From Candidatus Marinacidobacterales bacterium (GTDB taxonomy: Bacteria > Acidobacteriota > Vicinamibacteria > Marinacidobacterales > SMYC01), in NCBI GenBank assembly GCA_965250115.1, contig CBDFNJ010000002.1:3662966-3726965 (forward strand): DNA of 64,000 nucleotides, read 5' to 3'. The notes under the pieces are model-generated. The model saw nothing but the letters and a program-made list of their open reading frames with translations, searched no databases and was not told where the DNA came from. A program made the translations under genes and the position numbers. Shown in pieces: positions 2,204 through 56,272 of this stretch (its first letter is position 1; each line of letters begins with the position of its first letter).

Positions 2204-3592
2204 TCAAGGAAAGCGGAATCGAAGGGTCGTTAGGAACTCATCGTGGCCGATATCCTTGCTCGCGTCGATATCGTGAAAGGCGTACTCGAACGTCAGGTCG
2301 ACATTGCTCACGATAGTGACCCGGGCGCCCACGTCGATCTTCGCCCAGTCCCAGAACAGACTGGGCGCGACGAAGCCGGCCGGCGCGCGAAAATCGTTGT
2401 CGAGCCTGGCGTAGCGGAAGACAGGCTCGATCGCGGTGAACAGCGCTCCCGGATCCCCCGGGTCGCCGGACTCGATGCGATAGCCGACTTCGATCTCGAG
2501 GCCCTGGCGCGGCAGCGACGCCGACTCCTCGTTCACGAACTGGAAGAAAGCTCCGAGGTTTCCGAGCTGGGCGTCGAGGTTGAAGCCCCACTCCTTTCGG
2601 TCGTTACCCGCGATGGGAAGACTGACGCCGGCGCCATCGAGTAGGTCGAGGTCGCCTTCGTAGAAGGTCCCGTTCAGAGGAGCTGATTCCGAAAGCTTCG
2701 TTTGGTAGTAGAAACCGAAGACGTCGAGCCCAACGAGCTGGTCGTCCGACAGGAGCCGAAGGCCCACACCGGCTCCGGTCTCCAGGTGATCGTCGAAGGC
2801 GACTTCCTCGACCTCCGCGTGATAGAGGATGGGGATTCCTGCGTTGAAAGTGATCTCGGGGTTGGGCGGGGCTTCGACGCCGTTGTCACCGGCGAGAGCG
2901 TTCGGATCGCGCATGAAGATCGGGTTACCGTTGCTGACCTGGAACCGGAAGTAGAAGTGCTGCCCGAGACTGCCCCCGAGCTGAAACTACAGATCGTTGA
3001 ATCGGTTGAACGCCGTCTGAACCAGTCCGTAGCTCTCGAGCCGACGGAAGAGCTGGCGCTCGAACTTGGGCGCCTTCCCGAACAGAGCGTAGAGGTGGCT
3101 CCCGTGGATCGCCTCGAGCGATTCGTACTTCATGCCGAAGCGAAGGTAGGCCTCGTCGACGTCGACGTTGCGATCGCCGCTCGTTGGATTCCGGTCGTAG
3201 AGATCGACAAGATCGATCTTGACGCGCCCGAAGATCGACCGGGGCAGATTGGCCTCCAGAAACACCGTTGCCTTGCTGAGCTCGAGTGAGGAGCCCGGCG
3301 ACGGGGTTCTCAGCTCGACCCGATCTCGATTGGCCGGGATGAAACCATCGGGGAAGAAGGGAAGCGCGAAGAAGTCGTCCTCGGACCATCGGTAGTGCGC
3401 CTTGACCTCACTGGAGACTTGGAAAATTGTCTCGGAAGGCTCTTCGAACGGGACCTCGTCTGCGCTAGGGAAGAGACCGGAGACAACGACAGCAGGACAG
3501 CGAGAGGCAAACGACGCGGGATCATCGACAACAACTCCTGAAGAGAGGACAATTTCCAAAAAGGGGTCAATACCAGTCGCGTTTCCGGGCAC
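2204..3592 (-). pseudogene. hypothetical beta-rich (possibly outer-membrane) protein interrupted by a single in-frame TAG
   Basis: Track ORFs 2987..3592 and 2204..2914 lie in the same minus frame. They are separated only by TAG (plus-strand cta at 2987..2989). Read through, it gives ...NRFNDL*FQLGGSLGQHFYFRFQVSNGNPIFMRDPNAL... Confidence 0.5.
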
Positions 3593-3621
3593 GTTCGGGG
3601 TCTGCTATTATAGCAACCTCA

Positions 3622-4305
3622 TTGTATCGGTCGAAGATGAACAAGACATTTCTTCTTGTACTCACGCTACTCTGGACTCTTCCCGCATCGAGCCGGGCCC
3701 AGGTCTCGGGCCAGGTCGAAGTTCTGGAAAAAGGCGGCGTGAAGCGCCCCGTCATTCAGGACGTGCTCGTCTATATTGACGGCGTTTCCGTCGAGACAAC
3801 GACGCAGGGTAGCGCCCGGCACCAGACGATCAGGTCCCGCAACAAGGCGTTCGAGCCCCGCGTCGCGGCGGTGCTCGCCGGCACGACGGTGACATTCCCC
3901 AACCTCGACGACATCATGCACAACGTGTTCTCGCTCTCGAAGGGAAACCGCTTCGACCTAGGACTCTACAAGTCGGGTGCGCAGAAGGACTTCGTGCTCC
4001 GGAATCCGGGCCTGGTTCGCGTCTACTGCAACATCCATCCGCAGATGAGCGCCTTCGTTCACGTCACGGACAACCCCTATTACACTTGGGCGCAGCCCGA
4101 TGGCGCGTTTCGCATCGAGGGTGTCCCACCGGGCCGCTACACTCTGAGGGTCTGGAATGAGCAGGAAGAGACGACGAAGCCGGTGCTCGTGACCGAGCAG
4201 GGAGCGAGCGGCGTGCTCGTTCAGCTCGACGTGAGCAGCTACAAGAGGCGCCCCCATCTCAACAAGTTCGGCAAGCCGTACAAGAAGAAACGTGGCAAGT
4301 ACTGA
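3622..4305 (+). CDS. secreted cupredoxin-like protein with C-terminal carboxypeptidase-regulatory-like beta-sandwich
   Basis: Signal peptide MNKTFLLVLTLLWTLPASSRAQ (alternative start 3637). It has a His in IMHNVFS and YCNIHPQM (Cys-x2-His-x2-Met), an amicyanin/pseudoazurin-type type-1 copper ligand pattern. The C-terminus AFRIEGVPPGRYTLRVWNE resembles CarboxypepD_reg. The 3' end overlaps the start of the downstream sensor by 14 bp. Confidence 0.7.
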   Translation: MYRSKMNKTFLLVLTLLWTLPASSRAQVSGQVEVLEKGGVKRPVIQDVLVYIDGVSVETTTQGSARHQTIRSRNKAFEPRVAAVLAGTTVTFPNLDDIMHNVFSLSKGNRFDLGLYKSGAQKDFVLRNPGLVRVYCNIHPQMSAFVHVTDNPYYTWAQPDGAFRIEGVPPGRYTLRVWNEQEETTKPVLVTEQGASGVLVQLDVSSYKRRPHLNKFGKPYKKKRGKY

Positions 4306-6931
4306 ATCCTTGTGGTCTCGGCTCAGCCTGCAGGCGAAGATTTTCTTTCTCTCCCTTTCACTCGTCGTCGGTCTCACCGGCGCACTCCTCCTGTTCTCGT
4401 ATCAACGCGCGACCCGGCTCGCCAACGAGTCGCTCAGCCGGGCTCTGACCAGTACCCGTCAGCTCTACAAAAATCTCGAGACCGACCGTCTCGAGAAGCT
4501 CGCGCTCATCAACTCGGTCCTCGTCGAAAGCCCGTACTTCAAAGCGGCGGTCGCGGAGATGGACGCGGCGACGACACTCGATTCCACCCTCGACATGGCC
4601 GAGCAGGTCGGAAGCGATTTCATGATCGTGACCGACTACGAGGGGAGAATCGTCGCTCGCACGGACGTTCCGACCCAGAGCGGGAGGGATCTCTCGACGA
4701 CCCCTCTCGTCGGTTATGCACTCGGGGGTGAGAGTGCCGGCGGTGTCTGGGGCGAAGACGGCCACCTTTACCACGCCGTTTCGGTTCCCTTGCTCGTCGG
4801 GCCCGAGCTGCTCGGAGCCGTCGTCACCGGCTACGAGATTGGCGACGAGCTCGCCCTTTACATCAAGGGCATCGCGGGCTGCGAGGTCGTTTTCTTTTCC
4901 GCGACCGAGAACGAGGCCTATCGCGAGACGGGCTCGACGCTCGCCGAAGCGACGAGCACGCTCCGGGAGTGGGTCGAGGGAGCCTCGATGGCGTCCGCGG
5001 AGGAGGACGTCCGGCTGTCGCTCGGAGGGGAGGAGTATCAGGCGGTCTTCGCCCCACTGACGACCGTCGACGACGAGCCGATCGGTCTGTTCGCGGCCCT
5101 GCGCTCGAGAGATCGCGAGCTCGCAGCGTTTCGCTCGTTTCAGCGCAACGTGCTGCTCGTCGGTGTGCTCGGTATCGGGCTCGCCGTCCTCGCGAGCCAC
5201 CTGCTCGCGCGTGGCGTGGTCCGGCCTCTCAAGAAGCTCGTGACCGTCACCGATCGTATTCGCGAGGGCGACTACGGAAGCGACGTCGAGGTCAACTCCG
5301 GCGACGAGGTCGGCGCGCTCGCGAAGAGCTTCCGCGCGCTCCTGGGAGAGCTTCGCGAGAAGCAGGTCATGGAGAAATTCATCTCTCGCTCGGCCGCAGA
5401 GATGATTCAGAAGTCCGACGCCGTTTCCGTCGTCACCGGCGGGCGCCGGGCAGTCACCGTGCTCGTCTCCGAGCTGAAATCGTACGCCGCCTTCAAGGAC
5501 GAGAGCGCGGAGCCGAGCGCCGTTCTCGAGCGGGTGAATCGCGCCCTCGAGCGGCAGGCCGAGCTCGTCGAGCGCTACGGCGGGCAAGTCGACAAGTTCG
5601 TCGGCGACCGGATGATGGCCGTCTTCAAGGGGGAGGACCGGGTCTGGCCCGCGATTCGCTGCGCGATCTCGATCCAGCATCTGCTCGAGGCCGATGGCGA
5701 CGAAGAGGCGCTCATGCCGGGCATCGGTGTCAGCGCGGGTGAAGTGATCTTCGGCGCCGTGGGTAGCTCCAATCGGCTCGACTATTCACTGCTGGGGCCC
5801 ACCGTTCACGTGGCCGAGCGCCTGGCTAGCGAAGCGCCTCCGGGCGACGTGCTCCTCGCTCAGAACGCCTACGCTCAGGTTCAGGATCGCGCGTCGGCTG
5901 AGTCGCTGAAACCACTGAAGCTCCAGGGTATCGACGAGGTGATTCCCGTCTACAGCCTCTCGACGGGTACGATTCGGGGGCAGCAGATCGCCTCGTCGCG
6001 GACGGACGCCGGGCTTTCGCAGCGGGACGCGCCCACGCTCGTGGATGGCACCCAGGAGCCGGCCATGACACTCAGCTCGCTCGAGCCGGGCGCGGTGCTC
6101 GGCAAGCGATACGAGATCCGGCGCGTGCTCGGCAGCGGCGGGATGGGGATGGTCTTTCAAGCGAAGGACCACGACCTCGACGAGCTCGTTGCGCTCAAGG
6201 TGCTGCGCCCGGAGATCGCCTCCATGAATCCCAGCATTCTGGAGCGTTTCAAGACCGAGATCCGCGTCGCGCGGCGGATCACCCATCGCAACGTCGTTCG
6301 GACTTTCGACTTCGGCGACGCCAATGGCATCAAGTTCATCAGCATGGAGTTCGTTCAAGGCATGACGTTGAAGCAGCTCATTCGCAGCAAAGGAGCCCTG
6401 CCGATCAGCGTCGGCCTCCAGATCGCGAAGCAGGCATGCAACGGTCTCGTCGCCGCTCACGAGCAGGGCGTCGTCCACCGCGACGTCAAACCGCAGAACA
6501 TGATGCTCACGCCGCAGAGCGAAGTGAAGATCATGGATTTCGGCATCGTACGCGAAAACGGCGAATCGAGCATGACGCAGACCGGGCTGGTGATTGGCAC
6601 ACCCGACTACATGTCTCCCGAACAGGCGGAGGGCAAGGCGGACCTGGATCAGCGAAGTGACATCTATTCGTTCGGGGTGGTGCTCTACGAAATATTCACG
6701 GGGTCGACGCCGTTCAAGGGAACGACGCCAATGGGCGTCGCGATGCAGCACATCCAGGATGCGCCTCCGATACCGCGAAGCCTGAACTCGCAGCTCCCGT
6801 CGGACGTCAAGCAGCTCATCCTGCGCTGCATGCAGAAAGCCCCGGACCAGCGGCATCAGAAGATGGCGGACGTCCAGGCCGAACTCTTTCGCGTCTCGGC
6901 CGCGGTGTCCCGCCAGAGCGCCACGGCTTGA
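4292..6931 (+). CDS. transmembrane sensor: periplasmic domain - HAMP - class III nucleotidyl cyclase domain - Hanks-type Ser/Thr protein kinase
   Basis: 879 aa. TM1 is FFLSLSLVVGLTGALLLF, followed by a periplasmic region of about 250 aa, then TM2 VLLVGVLGIGLAVLASHLLA. HAMP is LKKLVTVTDRIREGDYGSDVEVNSGDEVGALAKSFRALL. The cyclase-homology domain is RRAVTVLVSELKS...VDKFVGDRMMAVFKG...LGPTVHVAERLA. Kinase motifs are GSGGMGMVFQA, ALKVL, HRDVKPQNMML, DFGIV and GTPDYMSPEQ. Confidence 0.9.
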   Translation: MASTESLWSRLSLQAKIFFLSLSLVVGLTGALLLFSYQRATRLANESLSRALTSTRQLYKNLETDRLEKLALINSVLVESPYFKAAVAEMDAATTLDSTLDMAEQVGSDFMIVTDYEGRIVARTDVPTQSGRDLSTTPLVGYALGGESAGGVWGEDGHLYHAVSVPLLVGPELLGAVVTGYEIGDELALYIKGIAGCEVVFFSATENEAYRETGSTLAEATSTLREWVEGASMASAEEDVRLSLGGEEYQAVFAPLTTVDDEPIGLFAALRSRDRELAAFRSFQRNVLLVGVLGIGLAVLASHLLARGVVRPLKKLVTVTDRIREGDYGSDVEVNSGDEVGALAKSFRALLGELREKQVMEKFISRSAAEMIQKSDAVSVVTGGRRAVTVLVSELKSYAAFKDESAEPSAVLERVNRALERQAELVERYGGQVDKFVGDRMMAVFKGEDRVWPAIRCAISIQHLLEADGDEEALMPGIGVSAGEVIFGAVGSSNRLDYSLLGPTVHVAERLASEAPPGDVLLAQNAYAQVQDRASAESLKPLKLQGIDEVIPVYSLSTGTIRGQQIASSRTDAGLSQRDAPTLVDGTQEPAMTLSSLEPGAVLGKRYEIRRVLGSGGMGMVFQAKDHDLDELVALKVLRPEIASMNPSILERFKTEIRVARRITHRNVVRTFDFGDANGIKFISMEFVQGMTLKQLIRSKGALPISVGLQIAKQACNGLVAAHEQGVVHRDVKPQNMMLTPQSEVKIMDFGIVRENGESSMTQTGLVIGTPDYMSPEQAEGKADLDQRSDIYSFGVVLYEIFTGSTPFKGTTPMGVAMQHIQDAPPIPRSLNSQLPSDVKQLILRCMQKAPDQRHQKMADVQAELFRVSAAVSRQSATA

Positions 6932-10167: not shown

Positions 10168-10321
10168 AGCGAGCAATATCGGAAGCTCCAGAACATCTAG
10201 GGTGAGTATTCTGTGCCAGGTTTGAAAGAGGTGTCGGACTATCTCGCTTCAACGGACGCCGAAGACAATAAACTGATCCAGCACGCTTCGCGAGGGCGGA
10301 GGCTGAGAAGCTTCCGCCCTC
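10168..10321. repeat. direct repeat copy B (degenerate duplicate of TPR 3' end plus hairpin)
   Basis: Aligns with 8521..8675. It would encode SEQYRKLQNI*GEYSVPGLKEVSDYLASTDAEDNK with an in-frame TAG at 10198..10200 (TGG to TAG relative to copy A). It is not attached to any upstream TPR body. Confidence 0.8.
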
Positions 10322-13193: not shown

Positions 13194-14921
13194 ATGTTCA
13201 AAAGAAACATTCTGTTGACCACGATGTGCGTTCTCACCGCTATGGGCCTTTTGGCCCAGACTCAGATCACCTCCGGCGTGATCCGAGGCCGCGTTCTCGA
13301 TCAGACAGACGCCGTGCTGCCAGGAGTTACTGTCGAAGTCAGAAACACGGACACCAATCTGATGCGAACGATCGTTACGGACGGGGAGGGGCGCTTCGCG
13401 GCGCTGGCACTGCCACCGGGCCCCTACGTCGTCACCCTCACTCTACAAGGCTTCGCCAGGTTCACTCAGGACGGCGTGATCTTGACCGTGGGGCAGGCGA
13501 TCGACCTCACCATACAGATGCAGCTTACCGGGGCCCAGGAGACGATCACCGTCACCGGTACGACGCTCGTGCAAGTGTCCCGAACAGAAGCGAGCTCTAC
13601 GCTGAACCAGACGACGGTGGAGACGACACCGGTGCTGGGTCGCAAGTTCGAGGACCTGCTCACGCTCACGCCCGGTGTCAGCATCGTGCAGGGACCCGAT
13701 GGTGACATGATCAACTTCGCCGGGCAACGCGGGGCCTTCAACAATATCAGCCTGGATGGAGGCGACTACAATAACGGTTTCTTTGGCGAGCAGGTCGGCG
13801 GGCAGCGGGCCAACGTGGACATCACGCTCGACGCGATTCAGGAGTTCCAGGTGGTGGCCACGGGAGCGAACGCCGAGTTCGGCCGTACCGCCGGGGGCGT
13901 CGTCAACGTCGTCACCAAATCGGGCACCAATCGGGTGAGTGGAAGCGTCTTCCACTTCCAACGCCTGGAAGCGCTGACGTCCGAGGCTTCGGATGGCACG
14001 AAACTCACCGACTTTCACCGTGAGCAAACCGGCGCCACGGTTGGCGGGCCTATCGTCCGCGACCGAGCCTTCTTCTTCGTGGCTGCCGAGAACATCGGCG
14101 GCAACTTCGAACGGCCCAACCTGGGCCGGGCTATCGGAGAGCCCTGCTCCATTCCGAACCCCAACATTATGACGGACGAGGCGCTCATCAACTCCAGCGG
14201 GGATTGCCAGCACGTGGCGCTCCTCAACTTCTTTCAAGACGAGCTGGGGATGGACGAGGGACGTCCGGTGAAACACCCCATAAGCACAACGTCGGTTTTC
14301 TCCAAGTTCAACTTTCGCGTGGCGGATGGGCACGATCTCTCCGTTTCCTACAATTTTCTGGACTCCTCGAACGAAAATGCGACCTTTGACGTCGACACCT
14401 ATGGCACCTCGGCGAACGGGATCGAGGGCGACCAGGCGCGCATCCATGTCCTGAACTTGAATCTCGTCAGCACACCCTCGACGACGTTGCTCAACGAGCT
14501 CCACTTCACCTATTCGCGGGAAGATCGCCCGCGCACGGCGGCGAGCTCTAACTTGGCCGCGGACACCGGGATGGGATTCGACCCCTCCTTTCGCTTCGGT
14601 AATCCCTTTTTTCTCCAGCCCAACGTCGACGAGTTGTTCTGGCGCACGCAGATCAAGGACAACGTGACCATCGTGGCCGGCGATCACACCATCAAAGTGG
14701 GAGGTGAGTGGATCCACTCGGTGAACGACCAAGTCTTTCGCGGCTTCTTCACGGGACGCTATATCTTCGATAGCACGACGGGCTTCCTGCGCTACGCTTC
14801 GCCCGCCGCGCCGGGAGGATACGGCCCCACTACGGTGACCTGCAGCGACGACAGCTACGTCACCTACCCGGCACCCTGTCCGGGCGGCGGCGATTTCACC
14901 GGCGGGCCCCTGCTTTTTTAG
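13194..14921 (+). pseudogene. TonB-dependent receptor (CarboxypepD_reg + plug type), C-terminally truncated
   Basis: Signal peptide, then CarboxypepD_reg-like ITSGVIRGRVLDQTDAVLPGVTVEVRNTDTN...DGEGRFAALALPPGPYVVTL. Plug-like TPGVSIVQG...GQRGAFNNISLDGGDYNNGFFG follows. The ORF ends after 576 aa at a TAG 44 bp before metF. Full-length receptors of this type are about twice as long, so the barrel is mostly missing. Confidence 0.6.
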
Positions 14922-15991: not shown

Positions 15992-16898
15992 TCACTCCCC
16001 TCCACCACGAGCCAGTAGGGATCGGCGTCGAGTCGTTCGAGCTTCGTCCTTGGATCGGACTAACGAACCGTAGAACCGTGATAGTGAGGGTATTCGTCCT
16101 GAGGGCGCGTTAGCTTCGCGTCGATCAGACGCGAGAGAAGAACGCGACGAATCGCCGCAGCCACGGAGCGGGCTCATCGGATTCGTTGTCGTAGTTCGAG
16201 AGCGACGAGAGCGAGCTTCCACCTTTCGAATAACTGTGACGGTGGGGTCCTCGGCCATTGCCGTGCGCTCGTCGGGCTCGAATCGGAAACGCCCGTGCGT
16301 GGAGAAACACAACTTTCGGAATGCCGTCATGCCGTCCTGATCGGCGTACTCGGCATGTACGACGTTGCCCGCTTCGATATAGATGCGACCCGGCCGACGA
16401 GCGCCATTGGCGATCGTGACCCGTCCCGTCTTTCGGCTCGCGAAGAGAAACTGGAGCACATCGGGAAGATGGTCGTCGCCAAGCGCGCCCTCTAGTGGGC
16501 CTCGTGGCTTGGGTTCGTAGCGCAGCCGACGCGTTTTCGCGGTGAGGAGGCGCATGGTGCTCAGGAGCTCGTCGTCGGTCGCGTCGATCCTGGCGCTGCC
16601 CTCGGTGGAATAGACCGGCGCCAATTGGGGTTTCTTACCGATCAACATCAGCACCGGAATGTCGTGCGTCATCGGATCGTCCTTGATGCTCCTGGCAATC
16701 TCCGATGGGCCCGGCGGTGCGATATCCGGTGACAGCATCACAAGGTCGGGCTGGGATCTCCTCAGCACCGCCTTCGTCATGGAGCCCGAGTTGGAGCTCA
16801 AGACTTTGAAGCCGCCTCGGCGGGCGAGGGCACGGTATCGCCCTGACGGGTGATCCGGACCCGGACCCTCTACGATTAGAACCGTGCGCTTAGACATG
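15992..16898 (-). CDS. response regulator: CheY-like receiver domain + DUF4388 (PATAN-like) domain
   Basis: Start MSKRTVLIVEG (ATG 16898..16896). Receiver ...DLVMLSPDIAPPG...IPVLMLIG. DUF4388-like LPDVLQFLFASRKTGRVTIANG...IYIEAGNVVHAEYADQDGMTAFRKLCF. The C-terminal tail is low complexity. The track ORF's longer N-terminus (to 17080) looks spurious. Confidence 0.8.
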
Positions 16899-29334: not shown

Positions 29335-31457
29335 ATGAGGTATCGAAACACGGGAGCCATAACGCTCTGGGTGCTCGCAGCTTCGCTCGTGCACGCCCAG
29401 GAACAAGAGCGCAAACCCGAGGAACAGGAAGAAGAAAGACCCAGCTACCAGGAGGTTGTCGTCGTGAGCGTATCCCGACTAGAGGAGCAACTCGTCAACG
29501 CGCCCGCGTCGGTGAGCGTTGTTTCCTCCGAGGTCATCGAAGTGTCACCCGCGCAGAACTACGGCGATTTGCTTCGCACTGTGCCCGGGCTCAACGTCAT
29601 CCAGCTTTCCGCCCGCGATATCAACGTGGCGAGCCGCGCCCAAACCGGAACGATCGTGACCTCCCAACTCGCCCTCGTGGACGGCCGCACGGTGTATCAG
29701 GATTTTCTCGGCTTCGTCATGTGGGATCTCATCCCAATCCAGACTGCCGAGATCGACCAGATCGAAGTCATTCGCGGGCCCGTCTCCGCCGTTTGGGGCG
29801 CGAACGCGATGACCGGCGTCGTCAATATCATTACGAAAGCGCCGCGTGACATGCAGAGGACCACGTTGACCGTCGGCTATGGGGGATTCGATCGCGCGGT
29901 CGAAGGGCGGGAGGAGGATAGTGGGGCGCTTCTCTCCCTGGGCGCGACCCACGCCCATGCCGTCAACGATCGCCTGGCCTACAAGCTGTCCGCCGGCGTG
30001 CTCACACAGGATCCGTTTCCCCGGCCCGCCGGGATCGTTCCGAACCCAACTCAAACGCCCTATCCGGCGTTCACAAACCCGGGCAGCACGCAGCCAAAAT
30101 TTGACTTTCGCCTCGACTACGACATTCCGGCGCCATCCCAGGATCCGACTCTCGTGCGCAAGTGGGTCGTGGGAGCGGGCTAGCCCGCTCCCAGGGGATC
30201 ATCCACACCGGCATCGGCCCGTTCGAGGTGGACCCAGATACATCGCTTGGCTATGAACGGTTGAGCTATCGGCACGGGAGCCTCGAGCTCAAGTTCTTCA
30301 CGAACGCGATCTCAGGTGAAGAGCCCGCCCTTCTCACGAGAGGATCCGATGGCGAGCCCATCGTCTTCCGGCTTCAAAATCGCACCTACGACGTCGAGAT
30401 GACGGACTTTCGTGCGCGCGGAAACTCACATCTCATCTCCTACGGTGGCAACTTCCGGCACAACGACTTCGACCTGTCTCTCGCTCCGGCGGGGGACAGT
30501 CGAAACGAGGGGGGCTTCTATGTTCAGGACGAGATCTTCCTCTCCACCCATTTGCGTTGGATCGTGGGTGGACGGGTCGATCGTTTCGACCTCCTGGACG
30601 ACGTTGTTTTCTCGCCCCGTACCGCGCTCTTGCTGAAGCCAACGCAGGACCACACGTTTCGGGTCTCGTTCAACCGTGCGTTCCGCGCGCCCGCCTTCGT
30701 CAACAACTTCCTGGATATCCAGGTTTTGAGCGATATCGATCTGGGCGCCGGCACGCCTTTCGTCTTCCCCGTCAACGCTCGGGGAAGCACCAATCTCAAA
30801 GAGGAATCCTTGACGGCTTACGAGATCGGCTACACCGGCGGCGGCGGGCGCGGACTGGTGCTGAACGCCGCCTTCTTCCTGAACGATACCCGGAACATCA
30901 TTCTGTTCACGCAGACAGGAAGCTACGACAGCCAGAACCCGCCTCCCGGCTGGCCCCTTCCCCCCGGAGTACTGGACCGTCTGGTCGCCCAGGGTATGGG
31001 GCTTCCTTCCGAGCTCGCTTACCGGAACTTTGACCGGGTGCAGAACCGCGGCGTCGAGCTTTCGCTCGACGCGCGCCTCGACGCCCACTTCGGCGCCTTC
31101 GCCAACTATTCCTGGCAGGACGAGCCCGAGCCCTTCAGCTTCGACATCTCGGAGCTAAACCTCCCGTCGAGCTATCTCGCGAACGTCGGCTTCGACTTCA
31201 AAAGCGGCCGCTACTTCGGAACCCTATCCGCGAGCTTCGTCGCCGAAGCCTTCTGGCAAGACGTCCTCGACTCCCGCTTCCATGGGCCGACCGACGCTTA
31301 CACACTCGTGAACGGAACCTTCGGCATTCGCTGGGAAGACGGCAAGCTCACGACCGCAGTAAAGGTAACGAACCTCTTGAACGACGAGATCCAGCAGCAC
31401 GTGTTCGGCGACGTCATCAAACGGCAGATCGTAGGAGAGCTTCGGTTTCGTTTCTAG
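29335..31457 (+). pseudogene. TonB-dependent receptor, frameshifted (plug in 29335..30183, barrel in 30162..31457)
   Basis: Signal peptide, then TonB-box-like EVVVVSVS. Plug ...DGRTVYQDFLGFVMWDLIPI...IEVIRGPVSAVWGANAMTGVVNI. Barrel ending ...VGELRFRF. The two parts are in different frames with the shift at about 30160-30200 (DYDIPAPSQDPTLVRKW / GIIHTGIGPFEVD). Confidence 0.8.
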
Positions 31458-33886: not shown

Positions 33887-35270
33887 GGGTCTACGCGGAT
33901 TCGTGTGGGTTGAAAACTGCATTTCTGGGTAATGGCGGAAGGAAAGCCGCCACGATCTTCAGCTTGAGATATTCCTCGTCGCGATAGCCGTAGGCGCGTC
34001 GTTGCAGAACACGGATTTTGTTGTTGACCCCTTCAACTAGGCCGAGACTGACTTTGTTCTCCGGATGACAGTAGGAGGCGATACCATCCCAATGGGACTC
34101 GATCATACCGGCGAACTTCTGGTACGGATGCAGGCGTTGCCATTTGAGGCTGTCTTTCCAACGAGTGAAAAAGGCGCGAGCGCCGCGTTCGGTGCGGTAA
34201 TCCCAGAGTTGCCCGAAGGCCTCCTTCAAAATAAAGGCGGTGTTCAGGCGCCGGTTGGCCTGGAGCAACTTTTTGAGTGCGCGGCGACCGTCTAGGCTCA
34301 GGTTCTCCCGCCGGGAAAGCAAAGTGTAACGCTGCCCCTTGATGTACGACCGGTCCTTGCCGCTGAGGCGTTTGTACTCACCGCGCCGGACCTCATCGAG
34401 GGCCTTTGACAGATGACGCATGATATGAAACTTGTCGAAGATGATCCGCGCATTAGGCGCGTTGTGAATCACCGAGTTCCGGAAGGGCTTCCACATATCC
34501 ATGGCGGCCAGCTTGATACGGGCGCTTTTCTTTCCGCCCAGCGCCTTGAAGAACAAATCGATGTCGGTTTCTTTGCGACCCTCACCGCCCACCCAGATGG
34601 GACGCGCCCGCTCCAGGTCGCTGACAATGACGCGATAGTTATGTCCCTTGCGGATGGAGATCTCATCGACACCGATGGCCCGAGGCGCCGGTAGCCCCGC
34701 CCGGTCGACCTGCTCTTGCATGTAGAGCGTATCCAGAGCCTTCACCGTACCGTGGTGCAGACGTTCCATCTCGGCCACCGCCTTGTTCGGCATATCCCTG
34801 CACAGCTTGCCCACATGCGTCGCAAAACGCTGGGTGTAGCGCGAGTTGTTCGCCAGCAAGTCTAGGTGTTCTACATGCACACCGCCGCACCCAGAACAGA
34901 TGACGCGCCAACGCTCGTATTCCAGATAGATCCGCCAGCCTGCCAACGACAGGTCGCGGACCCGGCACACTTGCTTGTCATAGCGCCCCCGGCACCGTTG
35001 CCCACAGTAAGAGCACACAGCTGTTTTTTTCGCCTCTTGAGCTGGATGACGCGGGCGTATCGGTCACCGAATAGACCCTTCAATCCGGCACCAACCACGA
35101 AACCTGGCAGCGCAAACAGCGAGCGGATCGACTGGGAATTTTTCACTCGGTTAGCCTATCCTGAAAATGGACCACTTTTCAGCACCTGATGAAGTACTCG
35201 ATACCTTTTCCACACAATGAGTTACACTGTTTTTCCGTCAGAACTTACCCACACGAATCCGCGTTAACCC
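33887..35270 (-). mobile_element. ISL3-family insertion sequence, copy A (1384 bp), flanked by 8-bp target duplication ATCTTTCT
   Basis: Terminal inverted repeats GGGTTAACGCGGATTCGTGTGGGTAAG / GGGTCTACGCGGATTCGTGTGGGTTGA. Identical 8 bp at 33879..33886 and 35271..35278. The ankyrin ORF resumes in frame after the duplication. Confidence 0.9.
33891..35146 (-). CDS. ISL3-family transposase (requires -1 frameshift at the T7/A7 run 35023..35029)
   Basis: N-terminal part MKNSQSIRSLFALPGFVVGAGLKGLFGDRYARVIQLKRRKK (GTG start). After a -1 slip at CGA_AAA_AAA_C it continues TAVCSYCGQRCRG...C.GCGGVHVEH (zf-ISL3) ... DEVRRGEYKRLSGKDRSYIKGQRYTLLSRRENLS (DDE_Tnp_ISL3). The 375-aa main ORF is intact in this copy. 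Confidence 0.8.
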
Positions 35271-36257: not shown

Positions 36258-36840
36258 GGCTACGTCGACCTTGCGTTATGCCTTCACGGAGTGTCATCTA
36301 GAGCCGCAACTTAGCAGGTGGAAGCCACACCCGAGCTAATGTAGACTTCCCTCACCCTTTCTTTTTCGGGTCTACGCGGATTCGTGTGGGTAAGTCCTGA
36401 CGGAAAAACAGTGTAACTCATTGTGTGGAAAAGGTATCGAGTACTTCATCAGGTTCTGAAAAGTGGTCCATTTTTAGGATAGGCTAACCGAGTGAAAAAT
36501 TCCCAGTCGATCCGCTCGCTGTTTGCGCTGCCAGGTTTCGTGGTGTGCCGGATTGAAGGGTCTATTCGGTGACCGATACGCCCGCGTCATCCAGCTCAAG
36601 AGGCGAAAAAAACAGCTGTGTGCTCTTACTGTGGGCAACGGCGCCGGGGGCGCTATGACAAGCAAGTGTGCCGGGTCCGCGACCTGTCGTTGGCAGGCTG
36701 GCGGATCTATCTGGAATACGAGCGTTGGCGCGTCAACTGTCCCGGGTGCGGCGGTGTGCATGTAGAACACCTGGACTGGCTGGCGAACAACTCGCGCTAC
36801 ACCTAGCGTTTTGCGACGCATGTGACCCTGCCCGGGTTTT

Positions 36841-37179
36841 GTGGACATCAACCGAGGCGCGACAATGCGCCTGGAGGCGTCCATGGGAGAACGACGACGC
36901 AGGAAGTTCACGGGGGAGTTCAAGAAGGAAGCGGTCCGGCTGTTCAGGGAGGGCGAGCGCAGCATCGGCCAGGTCGCTAAGGAACTGGACCTGACGGAAT
37001 CGGCCCTTCGAAACTGGGTGAAACAATACAAAGTTGATCACGGTGAAGGTCCACGCAAGGCTCTGACGACGGCGGAACGTGATGAGCTCCGTTCGCTACG
37101 GCGTCGAGTGCGTACGTTGGAGCAAGAGCGAGAAATATTAAAAAAGGCGGCGGCCTTCTTCGCGAAGGAAAGCGAATGA
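36841..37179 (+). CDS. IS3-family transposase OrfA (HTH)
   Basis: RRRKFTGEFKKEAVRLFREGERSIGQVAKELDLTESALRNWVKQY...LRRRVRTLEQEREILKKAAAFFAKE is a classic IS3 OrfA. Confidence 0.85.
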   Translation: MDINRGATMRLEASMGERRRRKFTGEFKKEAVRLFREGERSIGQVAKELDLTESALRNWVKQYKVDHGEGPRKALTTAERDELRSLRRRVRTLEQEREILKKAAAFFAKESE

Positions 37180-38031
37180 GATTCAAGTTCATTCACGCGG
37201 AGCGGGCCAACTACCCGGTGCGGGTGATGTGCCGAGTCCTGAGGGTATCGACCAGCGGCTACTACGCTCAGATGAAGCGCGCGCCCAGCAGGCGACAGTG
37301 TGAGGATGGGAAGCTGAAGCTGCGCATCCAAGCGATCCACGCCCATAGCCGTGGTACCTACGGCAGGGAGCGTGTACGTCGCCAGCTTGACGGGGAGAAC
37401 GTCGAGGTGGGCAAGCAGCGAGTGGCACGGCTGATGCGTGAGATGGGCCTGCAGGGCCTGCCCAGCAAGCGTTTTCGCCGCACGACCGACAGCAAGCACG
37501 ATCGCCCTATCGCGCCCAACGTGCTCGGCTGGCACTTCGAAGCCGAACGAGCGAACCAGTTCTGGGTGACGGACATAACCTTCATCCGGACTTGGGAAGG
37601 CTGGCTCTACTTGGCGGTCATCCTCGATCTGTTCTCGCGTCGTGTCGTCGGCTGGGCGATGCAGTCCCACCTGCGCGCAGAGCTTGCTCTCGAGGCGCTT
37701 CACATGGCCTTGGGGCGCCGTCTGCCTGGAAGTGGCTTGGTGCATCATTCAGACCGTGGTACTCAATACGCGGCTGCGTCTTACCAGGCCGTGCTCGATG
37801 AGCCGCAAGGGTAATTGTTGGGACAACGCCGTGACCGAGAGCTTCTTCGGCACGCTCAAGACCGAGCTCCTCCACCGATGTAGTTGGCCAACACGACGTA
37901 TGGCCAAAGACGCCGTCGCGAGCTACATCGAGGGGTTCTACAATCCGTATCGACTCCACTCGTCACTCGATTACAACAGCCCAATGGTGTTCGAACGGAT
38001 TCATGACCTCAAAACGGCTCATGCGAGATAA
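37176..38031 (+). pseudogene. IS3-family transposase OrfB (integrase core), internally frameshifted
   Basis: Two overlapping track ORFs (37176..37814, 37642..38031) together cover the rve domain. The frame switch lies near 37790-37810. Confidence 0.75.
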
Positions 38032-38507
38032 TCAACCTGTCCACTTTTCCTGGGCAAGGTCACATGTGGGCAAGCTGTGCCGGACAAGGCGGTGGCCGAG
38101 ATGGAACGTCTGCGCCTCCTAGTTGAAGGGGTCAACAACAAAATCCGTGTGCTGCAACGACGCGCCTACGGCTATCGCGACGAGGAATATCTCAAGCTGA
38201 AGATCGTGGCGGCATTCCTTCCGCCATTACCCAGAAATGCCGTCTTCAACCCACACGAATCCGCGTAGACCCTCTTTTTCTTTCCGACCCAACCCGGAAG
38301 CGAAACCACCTGGGGGGCGAAGGTTTTGCTGCTTGGTCTCGTTTTCCTCATTGCGAGCGTGATGGCCGCGTGTCAGCCCGGGCAGGGACGGCTTCCGGAA
38401 CGCCGCCAAAGTTAAAGTGACCCCCGGCAAGGCCGGGGGCCTATTCATAAGAGCCCCTCGAAGGGGCTGTTCATGAGCCCCCTAAAGGGGTCGATCTTGC
38501 TCCCCAA

Positions 38508-38619
38508 CTACGAGCCCGACCAGTCCATATTCAGCTGGTCCAGACGTTGGTCCTCCTGCTCTTGGTCACGAATGTACTTGCGGACCATCTCTTCGTCCAA
38601 GCCTACGGTCGACACGAAG
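38508..38619 (-). pseudogene. IS200/IS605-family TnpA (Y1 transposase) C-terminal fragment
   Basis: Minus-strand YFVSTVGLDEEMVRKYIRDQEQEDQRLDQLNMDWSGS* aligns with the IS200 TnpA C-terminus (YYVDTVGKNTAKIQDYIKHQLEEDKMGEQLSIPYPGS). It is truncated at the IS3 #2 boundary. No N-terminal part is found on the far side. Confidence 0.65.
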
Positions 38620-38671
38620 TATGAACCGCCCCGGGTTTCCCGGAGACCCCAACTCTTGAGAGGATGGAGTC

Positions 38672-39906
<1,235 letters not shown>

Positions 39907-43686: not shown

Positions 43687-43688
43687 CG

Positions 43689-50490: not shown

Positions 50491-51861
50491 CTAGCTAGCC
50501 GCAGGTGGGGTTTCGACGAATCGATGGGTATCGGGATGGTAGTCGAAGTGCAACGGTTGGGGCTTCGACGCTCCGGCAGTCAGTACCTCGAGGACGACCT
50601 TCCCCTCCTTCTCCACGAAGATCGCCGCCATGTCCGCGCTCTTCTCGTGGACGAGCTCTATGCTCGACGAGGTCGCACCGATGACTACGATGCCGAGTGA
50701 TTCCGCGAGCTCCTTGAGCTCGGCGACGGATTGCAGGAGATCGCTCTCACTGGAGAGCTTGTCGAGGTTGTCGACCGCAATCAGGCAGGAGGCGCCCGCA
50801 CCCGAACCGATGAGGCCTTGTCTCAGCTCACGCATCCGGGTGACGGCGAGACCCGGCTTCGACTCGACAACGTAGATGCGCTGCAGCCACTCGACGGCTT
50901 GCTCGCCAGTCCGAATGATGTTCTGCCACTGCTTGGAGTCCTTATTGAACTTCCCGGATCGAATCTGCTCCGCAGGTGCGCCGGACAAGCGCGACAGCGT
51001 CTGCAAGCGCAGCTACGCTTTCGAACGTTCGAACGACAGGTAGAGACAGGGAACGCGGCACCGAATGGCGATTTGATCGACGAGCTGCTTCAAGAAATCG
51101 AGACCCCGGCGCTGCTCCTTGCCACCGAGGAGCAACAACCCGGGGCCGAGACCGCCTCGCTCACCATCGAAGCCGTCGAAGCCAGTCTTCAGGTGCTCGC
51201 CCTGCTTCTTGGTGAGATCCGCCAGATAATGGAGCCACTCTCCGCTCTCGGGAGCCAGGATCTCCTCCATGGGCTCCTAAGACGCCTGCCGTAGCGGCGG
51301 GGCACCCCTTTCCGGCAGAACGACGTCCTCTTCCGGCAGCTGCGGCCGCATCGGGGATTCCGGTGCGGTCTCTGGCGTTGGCTCCTCGACTGGAGGCGGT
51401 TCCGGAGCACGGACCGTGACTGTCGGATGCGTTTCGGTCAGACGAGGGCTCGGCGCCGGACTCTCCTCCGCCGCCGAGGGAAGGCTCAGCTCGTCCCCCT
51501 TCAGATGCCCGATCCACTCCGTGAGCGTTTCCATCAAGGGTGCTTCGCCAGCGAATAGATCCTCCACGAAAAAGTCGTCGGGAACGCTCACCGACCGCCG
51601 AGCGAGCGCCCGCTGCAAACTGGTCACGTCCACGTTGGTCCCAGAGTGAGTCATCTCGAAAATGGTCGAGAATATCGACTTGGTGATGGGAAAGTAGAAG
51701 TCGCCTTCAGACAATTCCACGACGATGCGACTCTTGTGGGTCGAGCTCTCCGAATTGGCAGTCAGACACAGGGTCCGAAGGACGGAGGTCTCGAGATCGA
51801 GCAATTCTGCGTGTTCCATGCAAATGCTCCAGCTAGAATCCCAAGAATGGGACAGCATCAA
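50491..51861 (-). pseudogene. DnaB-like protein (DnaB N-terminal domain + Pro-rich linker + RecA-like DnaB C-terminal domain) with two in-frame TAG codons and a degenerate Walker A
   Basis: Track ORFs 51277..51861, 51013..51270 and 50491..51006 share one minus frame. They are separated only by TAG at 51277..51279 and 51013..51015. Continuous reading gives ...PLRQAS*EPMEEILAPESG...TGFDGFDGERGGLGPGLLLLGGKEQRRG...LYLSFERSKA*LRLQTLSRLSGAPAEQ...LIAVDNLDKL...IVVIGATSSS. The Walker A position reads GLLLLGGKE rather than GxxxxGK[ST]. Confidence 0.6.
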
Positions 51862-51981: not shown

Positions 51982-53846
51982 TTATCCGTTTTCGGTGTAG
52001 AGCCGGCGCAAACTACGCCTCATGACTTTGTTGGAGGCCGTCCGGGGTAGAGCCTCGATAGCGACGACGTCATGAATCTTGAACAGAGGGTTCAGCCGCT
52101 CGGCAATGGCGCGACCCAGCTCGCGCCGCAGTGTCTCGTGCTCGAGATCGCCATGGAGCACGACATAAACGACGAGTTTCTCCGCTCCTTCCCCGCCCGG
52201 CTGCACGGCAACGGCGGCGCTCTCATAGACCGAGGGATGCTCGTTGACGACGCTCTCGAGCTCGAGAGACCCGACTTTGATGCCGCCCAGGTTCATGGTG
52301 TCATCGGCTCTTCCTTGCGCTTTGAAATAGCCGCCGGGAGCCGCGCGATCTGATCGCCGTGACGCCCCAGCACTTCCCCCTTCGGCCCCTTCGGGCATTT
52401 GCCGTAATAGACCTCGTCGTGATTCTTGTTCAGAAGTGTCTGCGACAAACCGAGAGCGGGGGGCACCAGGTAGAGCTCTCCCATCTTCCCTTCCGGGACC
52501 GGCGAGTCGCGTTCGTCCAGAATCACGAATCGCGTCCCGAGCGCGGGAGTGGTGAAGGTAGCCGGCGACGCGGGCTGGAGCACGGTTCCCGTCAGGTGAC
52601 CTCCACCGATCTCAGTGCCGCCGAGGTACTCGATGATGGGAGCTCGATAGCCGGCGCGGCTCATCAGCCACGAATAGTCGTCCGCGTTCGAAGCCTCCCC
52701 CGTCGAGCTGAACAGACGAAGCTTTGACCACTCCCCCTCCTCGACGCTCTCTTTGGCGCGCCAGTTCTTGACCATCGACGGCACGACCCCCAGCATCGAG
52801 ACGGCCGACTCTTCGACGAAGGCCGTGAAGCCCCTGCCGGCCGGTGCTCCTTCGTAGAGCGCTATCGTCGCGCGATTGATCAAGCTCGCGTAGATCAGCC
52901 ACGGACCCATCATCCATCCGATGTTCGTAGGCCAGCAGACGACCTCGTTCTCGTGAACATCCTGATGAAAGTGGGCGTCCATCGCACACTTCAGCGGCGT
53001 CAGCTGTGTCCAGGGGATCGCTTTGGGGTCCCCCGTCGTTCCAGAGGAAAAGAGCACGTTGGTAGCGTGGTACGGATCGGCGAGGTGCGCCTCGAGACCT
53101 TTGTCCGACAAGAAGTCGTCCCATGCGAGGTCTCCTGAGTCGAGCGTCTGAGGGCGAAGCACAATCGCCGTCTCGTCTGTCCGGGCCTCCCGAGCCTTCG
53201 AGTAGAGGCCTATGTCGCGGCCCGCGCGTCGATAGCTCGAGACGGTCACGACCGCGCGGGCATCCGCGATCCGCATCCTTCTCCCGAGCTCTTCCGCCGA
53301 AAAACTGTCGGCGACCGAGACAACACGGCATCCTGCGCGTACCGTACCGAGATAGGCCACGACACATTCGGGTGTCATCGGCATGTAGAGCGCGATCGCG
53401 TCGTTCTTCTGGAAACCACGCGTGTCGAGACCCGCTGCGAATCGGTCGACGAGCCGCTCGAGCTCACCGTAGGTGATCGTCTCCGGCGAACCCCCTTCCT
53501 CTCGGCCGAAGAGGATCGCCGGTTTGTCCGGCGCGGCTATGAAACAGCTTCTCGTGATCTCGAGCTCCGCCCCCGGAAGCCACCGCGGATCGCGGACTCC
53601 CTTCGTCAGGTCGAGGATCCGCACGGGAGCCTTCTCGAAGAGGATGCCGAGGCGGCCGATCGTTTTCTCCCAGAACGCCTCGAGCTCGTTTACCGAGAAG
53701 CGGTATAGATCATCGTAATCGTCGATCCCCACCTCTCGCATCAAGGCCAAGAGGTTCGACCGCTCGCGCGTTCGCGAGTCGGGTCTCCACGCGATCTCGA
53801 GATTCGCGTCCATCGAATCCATCTTATACCCCGAGCCCGACAGCAA
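51982..53846 (-). pseudogene. AMP-dependent synthetase/ligase (acyl- or acetyl-CoA synthetase-like), frameshifted between core and C-terminal domain
   Basis: 52293..53846 encodes the adenylation core (SSGTTGDPK, YGGTEIGG). 51982..52398 encodes AMP-binding_C (GGYFKAQGRADDTMNLGGIKV...PRTASNKVMRR) in another frame. The switch lies at about 52300-52330 (RHGDQIARLP / GGYF), consistent with a 1-nt indel in a G/C run. Confidence 0.75.
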
Positions 53847-54045
53847 TGGTAAGGTGCCCGCATACCGTCACGAGACTACGAAGTCATCGTCATCGGAACC
53901 GGTCAGACGGAAAGCCGCTCGCGAAGGCCTTCGCCCAGGTGGGAAGCGGGTCCGCCTCGACGACGGACCGGCTCGTTCCATACACTACAAAGACACGACC
54001 TGCTCTCGAGCGTTGGAGACTATTGGACCAATAACGGGGAACGTA

Positions 54046-54636
54046 ATGTTGCGTGAACACAAAGACGATGTCGTAGCGGTGGCTCTACTGATTTCCGTCG
54101 CGGCCGCCGTCTCCTACAATTACTTCACGATCGTAGAATATCCGAGCCGTGACGACAGGCTTGAGCTTCACCGCTCGATCGTCGAGGGCGCGGCCCCCTC
54201 TCCTTACAACCATCGCGTATTGATCCCCTTTCTGGCGACCGTCCTCGCGAATTCTCTAAGAAGCCTGGGCGTCTCGTCCCTTTCGAGGGCCGTAACACTC
54301 TCTTACAGGTTCCTTGATTTGGTCGGATGCACGCTTTTTCTTGTGACCCTTTTCTTTTTCCTCAAGAAATGGCACCCGCCGCTCATGTCTCTAGTCGGGA
54401 CGTTGTTTTGCGCGGCGCTTATACCCATTTCACTAAGGGATCACTCCTTTAAGCCCTGGTCTTTGTTTGAAGCCTGGTTCTTTTGTATAGCGATGCTCGC
54501 GACACTCCGCCGACGCCATGGACTCCTCTACTTGATTACCATTCTGGCCTATTTCAACCGTACCACCGGATTGTTCGTCCCTGTGATCTACCTGGCAGGA
54601 GCTTTCGATTTCGAATCCATTAGAAAAAGGGGTTAA
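54046..54636 (+). CDS. hypothetical polytopic membrane protein; 3' end (stop codon) supplied by the ISL3 inverted repeat
   Basis: Start MLREHKDDVVAVALLISVAAAVSY (ATG 54046). About 6 TM segments. The stop codon TAA lies within the ISL3 terminal repeat, so the native C-terminus has probably been lost. Confidence 0.55.
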   Translation: MLREHKDDVVAVALLISVAAAVSYNYFTIVEYPSRDDRLELHRSIVEGAAPSPYNHRVLIPFLATVLANSLRSLGVSSLSRAVTLSYRFLDLVGCTLFLVTLFFFLKKWHPPLMSLVGTLFCAALIPISLRDHSFKPWSLFEAWFFCIAMLATLRRRHGLLYLITILAYFNRTTGLFVPVIYLAGAFDFESIRKRG

Positions 54637-56013
54637 CGCGGATTCGTGTGGGTAAGTTCTGACGGAAAAACAGTGTAACTCATTGTGTGGAAAAGGTATC
54701 GAGTACTTCATCAGGTGCTGAAAAGTGGTCCATTTTTAGGATAGGCTAACCGAGTGAAAAATTCCCAGTCGATCCGCTCGCTGTTTGCGCTGCCAGGTTT
54801 CGTGGTTGGTGCCGGATTGAAGGGTCTATTCGGTGACCGATACGCCCGCGTCATCCAGCTCAAGAGGCGAAAAAAACAGCTGTGTGCTCTTACTGTGGGC
54901 AACGGTGCCGGGGGCGCTATGACAAGCAAGTGTGCCGGGTCCGCGACCTGTCGTTGGCAGGCTGGCGGATCTATATGGAATACGAGCGTTGGCGCGTCAA
55001 CTGTCCTGGGTGCGGCGGTGTGCATGTAGAACACCTAAGACTGGCTGGCGAACAACTCGCGCTACACCTAGCGTTTTGCGACGCATGTGGGCAAGCTGTG
55101 CCGGGATATGCCGAACAAGGCGGTGGCCGAGATGGAACGTCTGCACCACGGTACGGTGAAGGCTCTGGATACGCTCTACACGCAAGAGCAGGTCGACCGG
55201 GCGGGGCTACCGGCGCCTCGGGCCATCGGTGTCGATGAGATCTCCATCCGCAAGGGACATAACTATCGCGTCATTGTCAGCGACCTGGAGCGGGCGCGTC
55301 CCATCTGGGTGGGCGGTGAGGGTCGCAAAGAAACCGACATCGATTTGTTCTTCAAGGCGCTGGGCGGAAAGAAAAGCGCCCGTATCAAGCTGGCCGCCAT
55401 GGATATGTGGAAGCCCTTCCGGAACTCGGTGATTCACAACGCGCCTAATGCGCGGATCATCTTCGACAAGTTTCATATCATGCGTCATCTGTCAAAGGCC
55501 CTCGATGAGGTCCGGCGCGGTGAGTACAAACGCCTCAGCGGCAAGGACCGGTCGTACATCAAGGGGCAGCGTTACACTTTGCTTTCCCGGCGGGAGAACC
55601 TGAGCCTAGACGGTCGCCGCGTACTCAAAAAGTTGCTCCAGGCCAACCGGCGCCTGAACACCGCCTTTATTTTGAAGGAGGCCTTCGGGCAACTCTGGGA
55701 TTACCGCACCGAACGCGGCGCTCGCGCCTTTTTCACTCGTTGGAAAGACAGCCTCAAATGGCAACGCCTGCATCCGTACCAGAAGTTCGCCGGTATGATT
55801 GAGTCCCATTGGGATGGTATCGCCTCCTACTGTCATCCGGAGAACAAAGTCAGTCTCGGCCTAGTTGAAGGGGTCAACAACAAAATCCGTGTGCTGCAAC
55901 GACGCGCCTACGGCTATCGCGACGAGGAATATCTCAAGCTGAAGATCGTGGCGGCTTTCCTTCCGCCATTACCCAGAAATGCCGTCTTCAACCCACACGA
56001 ATCCGCGTAGACC
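54630..56013 (+). mobile_element. ISL3-family insertion sequence, copy C (1384 bp), transposase inactivated; no target-site duplication
   Basis: Same IRs as copy A. It carries the A7 run at 54870..54876, plus a 1-bp insertion (cctaAgactgg, about 55035) and CAG-to-TAG (acacctagcg, about 55068). Flanks tagaaaaa / ttatttca do not match. Confidence 0.85.
54754..56010 (+). pseudogene. ISL3-family transposase, disrupted (A7 frameshift site + 1-bp insertion + nonsense)
   Basis: Track pieces 54754..55029, 54882..55238 and 55087..56010 together cover the transposase seen intact in copy A. Confidence 0.8.
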
Positions 56014-56100
56014 CTTATTTCATTGGTACTGTTCTACTTGGATCGGGAACTATACGCCTCGAGCCGGCAGAGGCCCAGTCAACAAGGCTACACGAGGTGA

Positions 56101-56272
56101 AAAGTCTGAGCTTGTCTCAATCACGAGTGTCCGTTGGATGGAAAACCGCATCCTGGGCACCGCCATCATCGGCGTCGGCGGCGGCGAGGTCATGACGGTG
56201 CTGCAGGTGGCCACGATGGAAGGACTTCCCCACACGGCGATTCGCGACTCCGCTTTCGCACATCCCACGTAG
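56101..56272 (+). pseudogene. C-terminal fragment of a pyridine nucleotide-disulfide oxidoreductase (Lpd/MerA-like dimerisation domain)
   Basis: ...ENRILGTAIIGVGGGEVMTVLQVATMEGLPHTAIRDSAFAHPT* matches the conserved dimerisation-domain end (ILGAHIIGP.AGE.I.E...AME.G.T.EDIA...HAHPT). No upstream part of the gene is present. It abuts the ISL3 copy C end. Confidence 0.5.

Follow-up and report, generated by a model that had tools for sequence, protein, structure and literature searches.

Gene-inactivating lesions of different ages in 64 kb of a Candidatus Marinacidobacterales chromosome, probably accumulated by ordinary mutational routes

The DNA analyzed here, referred to throughout as the window, is a stretch of 64,000 nucleotides (nt) from a Candidatus Marinacidobacterales bacterium (Acidobacteriota; Vicinamibacteria; contig CBDFNJ010000002.1, positions 3,662,966 to 3,726,965), and the subject is the set of broken genes and insertion sequence (IS) copies that it carries. 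Eight of the approximately 47 chromosomal genes in the window are solid pseudogenes (~17%), and three of the five IS copies are defective. The lesions are very probably genuine and of different ages; they are polymorphic among strains with 99.5-99.8% identity and would be the work of ordinary mutational routes in a population that is accumulating gene-inactivating changes. A first-pass annotation made from the letters alone had proposed an unusually high density of disrupted genes; most of its list stands, and it fails for two loci (12110-12452 and a repeat copy at 10198) that are described below. In free-living bacteria, the share of pseudogenes is usually a few percent.

The window is chromosomal DNA with 61% G+C and carries a suf operon, MTHFR, MacB/LolA-type transporters, Ser/Thr kinases and TonB-dependent receptors (TBDRs) with CarboxypepD_reg domains. 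Homologues of its proteins are labeled Acidobacteriota or Vicinamibacteria, and a scan of genome contigs gave best matches for SufB in Bryobacterales and other Acidobacteriota (82-83% identity). The contigs found with SufB were dropped as comparators for dating the lesions, because their identity does not exceed 83% and synteny ends at the suf operon. Same-species comparators were instead reached via a 96%-identical homologue of the read-through product of 2204-3604 and via contigs sharing identical proteins with the window. They form three sets: loci L081, L082, L083 and L086 (ERZ25067256 contig_13 and equivalent contigs), loci L085 and L089 (ERZ25069191 ctg586098_16x_l) and locus L087 (ERZ25071127 contig_15). 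These contigs, which represent four other assemblies of the species, come from other, mutually different samples, follow two naming styles and share 99.5-99.8% DNA identity with the window over positions 1-33886 and 39785-64000. The outgroup was locus L084 of a sister species, on a 7.3-Mb contig (proteins P0140 and others). Approximately 85 kb of DNA from the species was examined in total.

The broken genes and the IS copies of the window, with their coordinates and strands, are as follows.

2204..3526, minus strand: pseudogene of a conserved secreted protein of 440 amino acids (aa) and no known family, with a CAG-to-TAG change and a 1-nt deletion, both private to the window
13194..14921, plus strand: truncated TBDR (CarboxypepD_reg, Plug and the start of the barrel), with ~45% gone at the C-terminal end
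16125..16672, minus strand: DUF4388 (PatA_N) gene that has lost 100 nt between 12-nt direct repeats at 16260-16271, with a shift of frame
29335..31457, plus strand: TBDR pseudogene with 1 nt missing at ~30176-30178, leaving fragments of 282 and 431 aa
33033..36257, plus strand: DUF6438-ankyrin gene split by ISL3-A into pieces at 33033-33886 and 35271-36257
33887..35270, minus strand: ISL3-A, apparently intact, with a 375-aa transposase; the insertion is private to the window
36368..38272, plus strand: ISL3-B, defective, with TAG for CAG, ~780 nt of its interior gone, an interruption by IS3 copy 1 and an 8-bp duplication, TCTTTTTC
36825..38117, plus strand: IS3 copy 1, nested in ISL3-B, whose orfB changes frame within the rve domain at ~37792-37814
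38473..39906, plus strand: IS3 copy 2, apparently intact, with an ALIL pseudoknot at 38950-39066 at the orfA/orfB overlap
50491..51819, minus strand: DnaB-like pseudogene with two in-frame TAGs
51982..53846, minus strand: pseudogene of an acetyl-CoA-synthetase-like AMP-ligase, with a 1-nt deletion (C4 to C3) at ~52336-52338
54630..56014, plus strand: ISL3-C, defective, with an added A at 55037 and a CAG-to-TAG change at 55067-55069
56021..56272, plus strand: C-terminal remnant of a pyridine-nucleotide-disulphide oxidoreductase (weak match to Pyr_redox_dim 58-101 of 110), adjoining ISL3-C

Alignments of the pseudogenes cross each lesion, with homology continuing on both sides of it within conserved coding sequence, and the ancestral states at the lesions are sense codons kept within the respective families. 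An intact full-length orthologue in a close relative, or a longer homologue, is present for the gene at 2204-3526, both TBDRs and the ankyrin, DUF4388 and DnaB-like genes, while the AMP-ligase gene of L086 is in frame at the site of the lesion. Arranged by their distribution among strains, the lesions fall into species-wide, partly shared and private classes. Those that are shared are reproduced in two to four independent assemblies, and those private to the window are known from its assembly alone.

Two lesions are species-wide: the loss of the 3′ end of the TBDR at 13194-14921 and the 1-nt deletion in the TBDR at 29335-31457. The truncation of the former, already suspected from its reading frame, is confirmed by full-length homologues of 1029, 1024 and 1104 aa that align over its first ~580 residues only. 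Homology stops at ~14930, 75 nt before the start of MTHFR at 15005, and the product is 575 aa long in every strain; the truncation is old and fixed. In the latter, a tblastn search with the intact 707-aa orthologue places the switch of frame between VVGAG and LARSQG. The gene is split into 282 (276 in one case) and 431 aa in every same-species assembly that carries the locus and is whole, at 707 aa, in the sister species (P0140 and P0142), which verifies the frameshift proposed for it. Divergent from this receptor lies a gene (27706-29265, minus strand) for a fusion of a Ser/Thr protein kinase with a TonB C-terminal domain.

Two further lesions, the 1-nt deletion in the AMP-ligase gene and the first TAG of the DnaB-like gene, are common to the window and L085 only. 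At the AMP-ligase site, where a frameshift had been predicted, the window and L085 read CCC and L086 reads CCCC, which restores the frame as ...RLPGGYFKAQGRADD... in that strain. The L086 gene keeps its frame at the C run and has a 120-nt deletion at ~52147-52267 instead. In the DnaB-like gene, both reported TAGs prove to be sense codons in near-identical strains. A CAG-to-TAG change at 51277-51279 is common to the window and L085, with CAG in L086. The second TAG, at 51013-51015, is a GAG-to-TAG change that occurs in the window only; both other strains have GAG, coding for a Glu that is conserved in the family. L086 carries an 8-bp insertion in this gene instead and an ISL3 element upstream of it. 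The family to which the gene belongs (DnaB N-domain plus DnaB_C; P0306-P0392) is conserved in many Acidobacteriota, and more than 80 other genomes have intact members of 420-480 aa. The Walker-A GKT motif is absent from every aligned member, and the family may represent a conserved pseudo-helicase.

The lesions private to the window are, besides the GAG-to-TAG change, the TAG and 1-nt deletion in the gene at 2204-3526, the insertion of ISL3-A and the 100-nt deletion in the DUF4388 gene. The in-frame TAG of the first of these genes, at 2987-2989, had been noted from the sequence; it is CAG in a 99.6%-identical strain (L081, L082 and L083) and encodes a Gln that is invariant across the family. 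A second lesion in this gene, overlooked in the first-pass annotation, is a deletion of 1 nt (AA to A) at ~3460; the frame changes after codon 21, which leaves the signal peptide out of frame. The orthologue in L081 is intact at 440 aa. The secreted protein belongs to a family with more than 1000 homologues at 56-76% identity (proteins P0001-P0120), and no match to it was found in Pfam, NCBIfam or PDB. The ankyrin gene is intact, with an empty IS site, in L086 (569 aa) and L087 (610 aa), and ISL3-A is flanked in the window by an 8-bp target duplication, ATCTTTCT, at 33879-33886 and 35271-35278; the proposed disruption by an IS is established by the duplication and the two empty sites. The DUF4388 lesion had likewise been overlooked. 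L087 has 100 additional nt at window position 16260-16271, flanked by the 12-nt direct repeat, and the domain matches its profile over positions 1-121 of 122 in L087 versus 1-100 in the window.

The IS copies themselves are assigned by their domains and ends. The ISL3 elements encode proteins matching Pfam PF01610, PF13542 and PF14690 (DDE_Tnp_ISL3, a helix-turn-helix domain and an N-terminal Zn-ribbon), have terminal inverted repeats GGGTCTACGCGGATTCG and GGGTTAACGCGGATTCG and are flanked by 8-bp duplications at copies A and B. An N-terminal frameshift common to all ISL3 copies was considered and rejected, because the Zn-ribbon is complete from a GTG start. Copies B and C had been described as carrying a CAG-to-TAG change plus an indel, and both are indeed defective. 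The added A and the TAG of ISL3-C are changes relative to the copy that L089 carries at this locus, and its TAG is also found in ISL3-B. ISL3-C, compared together with its flanks (54617-56020), has no target duplication, the flanks being AGAAAAAG and TTATTTCA, while the duplications of ISL3-A and ISL3-B are T-rich and 8 bp long. The flanks of ISL3-C were therefore not contiguous ancestrally, which indicates an IS-mediated rearrangement (deletion or inversion). Of the two broken genes proposed at this junction, the Lpd-type fragment is seen as a weak Pyr_redox_dim match at 56021-56269, and the 'membrane gene' is not upheld, having a weak coding signal and no family.

Both IS3 copies have orfA (HTH_Tnp_1) and orfB (rve) as identified by Pfam, with orfB in the -1 frame. 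The frameshift between orfA and orfB of IS3 copy 2 is programmed, with the ALIL frameshifting pseudoknot at 38950-39066. This is the sole Rfam match in the window; no Rfam match for a frameshifting signal was obtained at IS3 copy 1. The frameshift that had been suspected in orfB of IS3 copy 1 is real, a second and non-programmed shift inside the rve domain. The cluster of IS copies coincides with large structural variation between the window and L085, which are 99.7% identical: in L085 (13891-20450), an hsdR fragment, hsdS, hsdM and another IS3 replace the IS cluster at window positions 36368-39933.

Other strains of the species carry lesions of their own. Those private to L086 are the insertion (8 bp, DnaB-like gene) and the deletion (120 nt, AMP-ligase gene) described above, the extra ISL3 and a DUF4154 gene that is called as two pieces. 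In L089, a 117-nt deletion (window 59525-59641) cuts short DUF423, of which the window has an intact copy, and the stop in the ISL3 copy is a different one. Beyond the window, DNA of the species includes a truncated AcnX (profile positions 2-158 of 400) and an hsdR fragment.

Four routes would account for this spectrum: active ISL3 and IS3 elements that transpose and mediate rearrangements, losses of 1 nt from short runs of G or C, deletions of 100-120 nt between short direct repeats and single-base nonsense mutations. Purifying selection would be weakened on this time scale rather than absent. Comparison of intact genes with those of the other strains gives a ratio of non-synonymous to synonymous polymorphism (pN/pS) of 0.23-0.89 (~0.5 pooled), and the ratio of non-synonymous to synonymous divergence (dN/dS) relative to the sister species is 0.16-0.28 at a synonymous divergence (dS) of ~0.13. 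The measure is thus raised between close strains, as recent divergence would lead one to expect, and is not neutral; dN/dS in retained genes does not approach 1 as it would in genome decay under relaxed selection. A value near 1 obtained against L081 was rejected, since the count had taken in pseudogenes and two mis-framed genes. In the region that could be compared three ways (39934-51884), the window has seven private substitutions, of which four are synonymous and one is non-synonymous in intact genes. The private substitutions of L086 in the equivalent region have a transition/transversion ratio of ~1, with 13 non-synonymous to 6 synonymous changes in the suf and DPP-IV genes; they are far noisier than those of the window, for which either biology or assembly quality is a possible cause. 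The radical-SAM and thioesterase proteins of the window have private amino-acid changes, exact look-ups of both having returned no match.

Several points weigh against this account of accumulating lesions. The lesions of the gene at 2204-3526, the second TAG of the DnaB-like gene and the two changes in ISL3-C are known from the assembled sequence of the window. The comparators possibly derive from one project or platform, in which case a shared error is possible for the 1-nt deletions in G4 and C4 runs. With ~85 kb of the species examined, any statement on the whole genome is extrapolated. Very recent divergence in ordinary bacteria also produces a pN/pS of ~0.5 within a species, so that this value is by itself no sign of unusually weak selection, and the ~17% of pseudogenes is set against no clade-specific baseline. 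What the comparisons show directly is the lesions, with their polarity and their occurrence among strains; the attribution to weak selection or a small effective population size together with IS activity, like any spread of the process beyond the window, is what we infer from this pattern.

The internal stop codons were considered separately, as all five are TAG. The terminators of 35 intact genes in the window are TAG in 15 cases, TGA in 13 and TAA in 7, and the earlier statement that TAG is not reassigned is thereby sustained. The codon usage of the window predicts that TAG makes up 55-59% of one-step nonsense mutations under uniform, transition-biased or GC-to-AT-biased models, so that five TAGs among five stops are unremarkable (chance ~0.06). 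The dominance of TAG would reflect which codons a single change can turn into a stop: in this GC-rich genome, the commonest of them are GAG, AAG, CAG, TCG, TAC and TGG. Pooled polarized substitutions comprise 31 GC-to-AT and 15 AT-to-GC changes, a per-site excess of ~1.3-fold that is no more than the usual bacterial AT bias and indicates no special mutational regime. The proposal of decay driven by G:C-to-A:T transitions is not supported as anything special: the bias is small, codon usage predicts the TAGs and one of the five is a transversion (GAG to TAG). No shared sequence motif was found around the TAGs, and no CTAG or methylation-motif anomalies, CTAG being under-represented as usual. An all-TAG nonsense pattern in a GC-rich genome thus follows from codon usage and does not testify to a special mutational process. 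As a separate observation, TAG is the commonest terminator of the species, ending 15-16 of the 34-35 genes counted in the window and 5 of 12 elsewhere (L081 13527-21323 and L089 15113-20687), versus 21-27% of genes in loci of similar G+C content from other Acidobacteriota (Fisher p ~0.015).

Errors of assembly or consensus, such as homopolymer indels of long reads and miscalls in methylation contexts, can create false stops and frameshifts, and the first-pass annotation had left the choice between systematic error of this type and genuine decay with IS expansion. Two of the frameshifts do lie in short homopolymers (G4 to G3 at ~30178 and C4 to C3 at ~52338), 1-nt differences occur at a C5/C6 run (54193) and a T6A7 run (13174), and the related contigs seem to be long-read metagenome assemblies, as judged from their names and one contig labeled 2x. 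Nevertheless, this explanation is improbable, because the lesions recur in other samples, nest by age and are matched by private lesions in other strains; of the two options, genuine decay with IS expansion is retained and systematic error is not. The same lesions appear in assemblies of both naming styles. Differences between strains are ~95% substitutions with few single-base indels, the gene-breaking indels sit in runs of at most four bases or in none (the private AA-to-A deletion at 3460 being outside any long run) and the TAG contexts have no common motif. Neither lesions of 8, 100, 117 and 120 nt nor IS insertions flanked by target duplications are types of error, and the private substitutions of the window in intact genes are mostly synonymous. 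The idea that the in-frame TAGs are decoded, by reassignment, suppression or pyrrolysine, and that the genes are functional draws on the identity of all five internal stops, and its probability is negligible. That uniformity is near chance, TAG is the commonest true terminator, the TAG sites are CAG or GAG in strains with 99.6-99.7% identity (the internal TAGs being polymorphic among strains), the same genes also carry frameshifts or deletions and no tRNA gene was found in the 64-kb window.

A weightier objection, though still an unlikely one, is that the window is an atypical island, an IS hot spot with dispensable genes in an otherwise ordinary genome. Its five IS copies, one of them nested in another, fall into two groups at 33.9-39.9 kb and 54.6-56.0 kb. 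Three of its broken genes, an ankyrin gene and both TBDRs, come from families that are large and redundant, the housekeeping suf operon is intact, as are MTHFR and the transporters, and the type I restriction-modification system of L085 at the IS cluster is a difference in gene content as seen in variable regions. However, the point mutations and deletions are spread over 2.9-52.3 kb and not only near IS copies, and same-species DNA outside the window holds the truncated AcnX and hsdR genes and further IS copies. The sister locus L084 likewise has three IS copies and a truncated orthologue of the gene at 2204-3526 within 20 kb, and cluster members include a 95-aa fragment of an enolase-family gene in a third related genome. 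It is more doubtful that the losses are adaptive, removing surface proteins (the secreted or outer-membrane protein and two TBDRs) and the adjacent AMP-ligase and DnaB-like genes, for example in escape from phage or bacteriocins. The same genes are indeed hit independently across strains, with three sets of lesions in the DnaB-like gene and two in the AMP-ligase, and three of the eight pseudogenes encode envelope proteins. Repeat hits are nonetheless expected in a dead gene, the first DnaB-like TAG, common to two strains, predates the second, the numbers are small and no phage or defense context was found near the genes that were hit. TBDRs are numerous in Acidobacteriota and would present a large neutral target.

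The preferred reading thus remains the accumulation of genuine lesions by ordinary routes. A bolder version of it, which is advanced only tentatively and is itself rather unlikely, is that this is an apparently free-living, multi-megabase species at an early stage of IS-driven decay, in which each strain acquires its own knock-outs, the adjacent AMP-ligase and DnaB-like pair is hit independently and the background is a recent bottleneck, a shift of lifestyle or selection for loss. If the density seen here were to extend genome-wide, the species would provide an environmental Acidobacteriota population in active IS-driven decay and a natural case for following the origin of pseudogenes and their segregation among co-existing strains. 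The stops and frameshifts should be annotated as pseudogenes, and neither 'corrected' as errors nor read as recoding.

Two further features bear on loci that had been proposed as disrupted.

10168..10321, plus strand: non-coding duplicate of the 3′ end of a TPR gene (8521-8675), 155 nt, a relic present in all strains
53854..54636, plus strand: open frame (the putative 'membrane gene'), running into the left end of ISL3-C, with weak coding signal

The repeat copy at 10198 had been counted as a disrupted gene. As a non-coding relic carried by all strains it breaks no gene, and only the G-to-A change in the 155-nt duplicate (TGG to TAG at 10198-10200) is private to the window. The likely frameshift reported at 12110-12452 also disappears on comparison: there is no coding signal in any frame, no family match and no indel relative to the relative over this stretch. 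The open reading frame at 12110-12529 could not be named from Pfam, NCBIfam or PDB, and the open frame at 53854-54636 has no family match in the same three resources. Among intact genes, a single 873-aa protein encoded at 4310-6931 (plus strand) joins dCache, HAMP, adenylate/guanylate cyclase and Ser/Thr kinase domains. In-frame length variation occurs at the 5′ end of the FeS_assembly_P gene (43191-43202), where the number of 12-nt repeats is different in all three strains, and in a DUF4388/TPR protein (63702-63722), where there is a 21-nt indel.

The lesions represent a known kind of genome decay, here in a new (Acidobacteriota) lineage; a limited full-text literature search found no report of decay by IS and pseudogenes in Acidobacteriota. 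Expansion of IS with accumulation of pseudogenes is familiar from Shigella and Yersinia pestis. Recently bottlenecked or host-restricted bacteria in which it has been described include Leptospira borgpetersenii (PMC13046281), 'Nostoc azollae' (PMC4369082) and Sodalis glossinidius (PMC7067036). The window resembles these bacteria in having near-identical, nested and defective IS copies, genes split by IS, IS without target duplications (which indicates IS-mediated rearrangement), scattered nonsense and frameshift pseudogenes and lesions that differ between close strains. It differs from them in that there is no evidence of host association here, the genome cannot be called small, with a source contig of 4.1 Mb and a sister genome of 7.3 Mb, and selection on intact genes is measurable, with pN/pS of ~0.5 within the species and 0.16-0.28 between species.

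A second comparison is with the time-dependence of dN/dS among very close bacterial genomes, which Rocha et al. reportedly treated in 2006. The values obtained here behave in the same way, with pN/pS of ~0.5 at 0.2-0.4% divergence and lower values at ~12% synonymous divergence. The excess of amino-acid changes is accounted for by this effect, but the ~17% of pseudogenes and the IS load are not. Lastly, the programmed -1 frameshifting of IS3 transposases (Rfam RF01497, ALIL) has its counterpart at the overlap in IS3 copy 2, which carries the element with a score of 96.8 bits. Only this frameshift is of the programmed type, and the second shift in orfB of IS3 copy 1 and all of the chromosomal frameshifts are distinguished from it as non-programmed.

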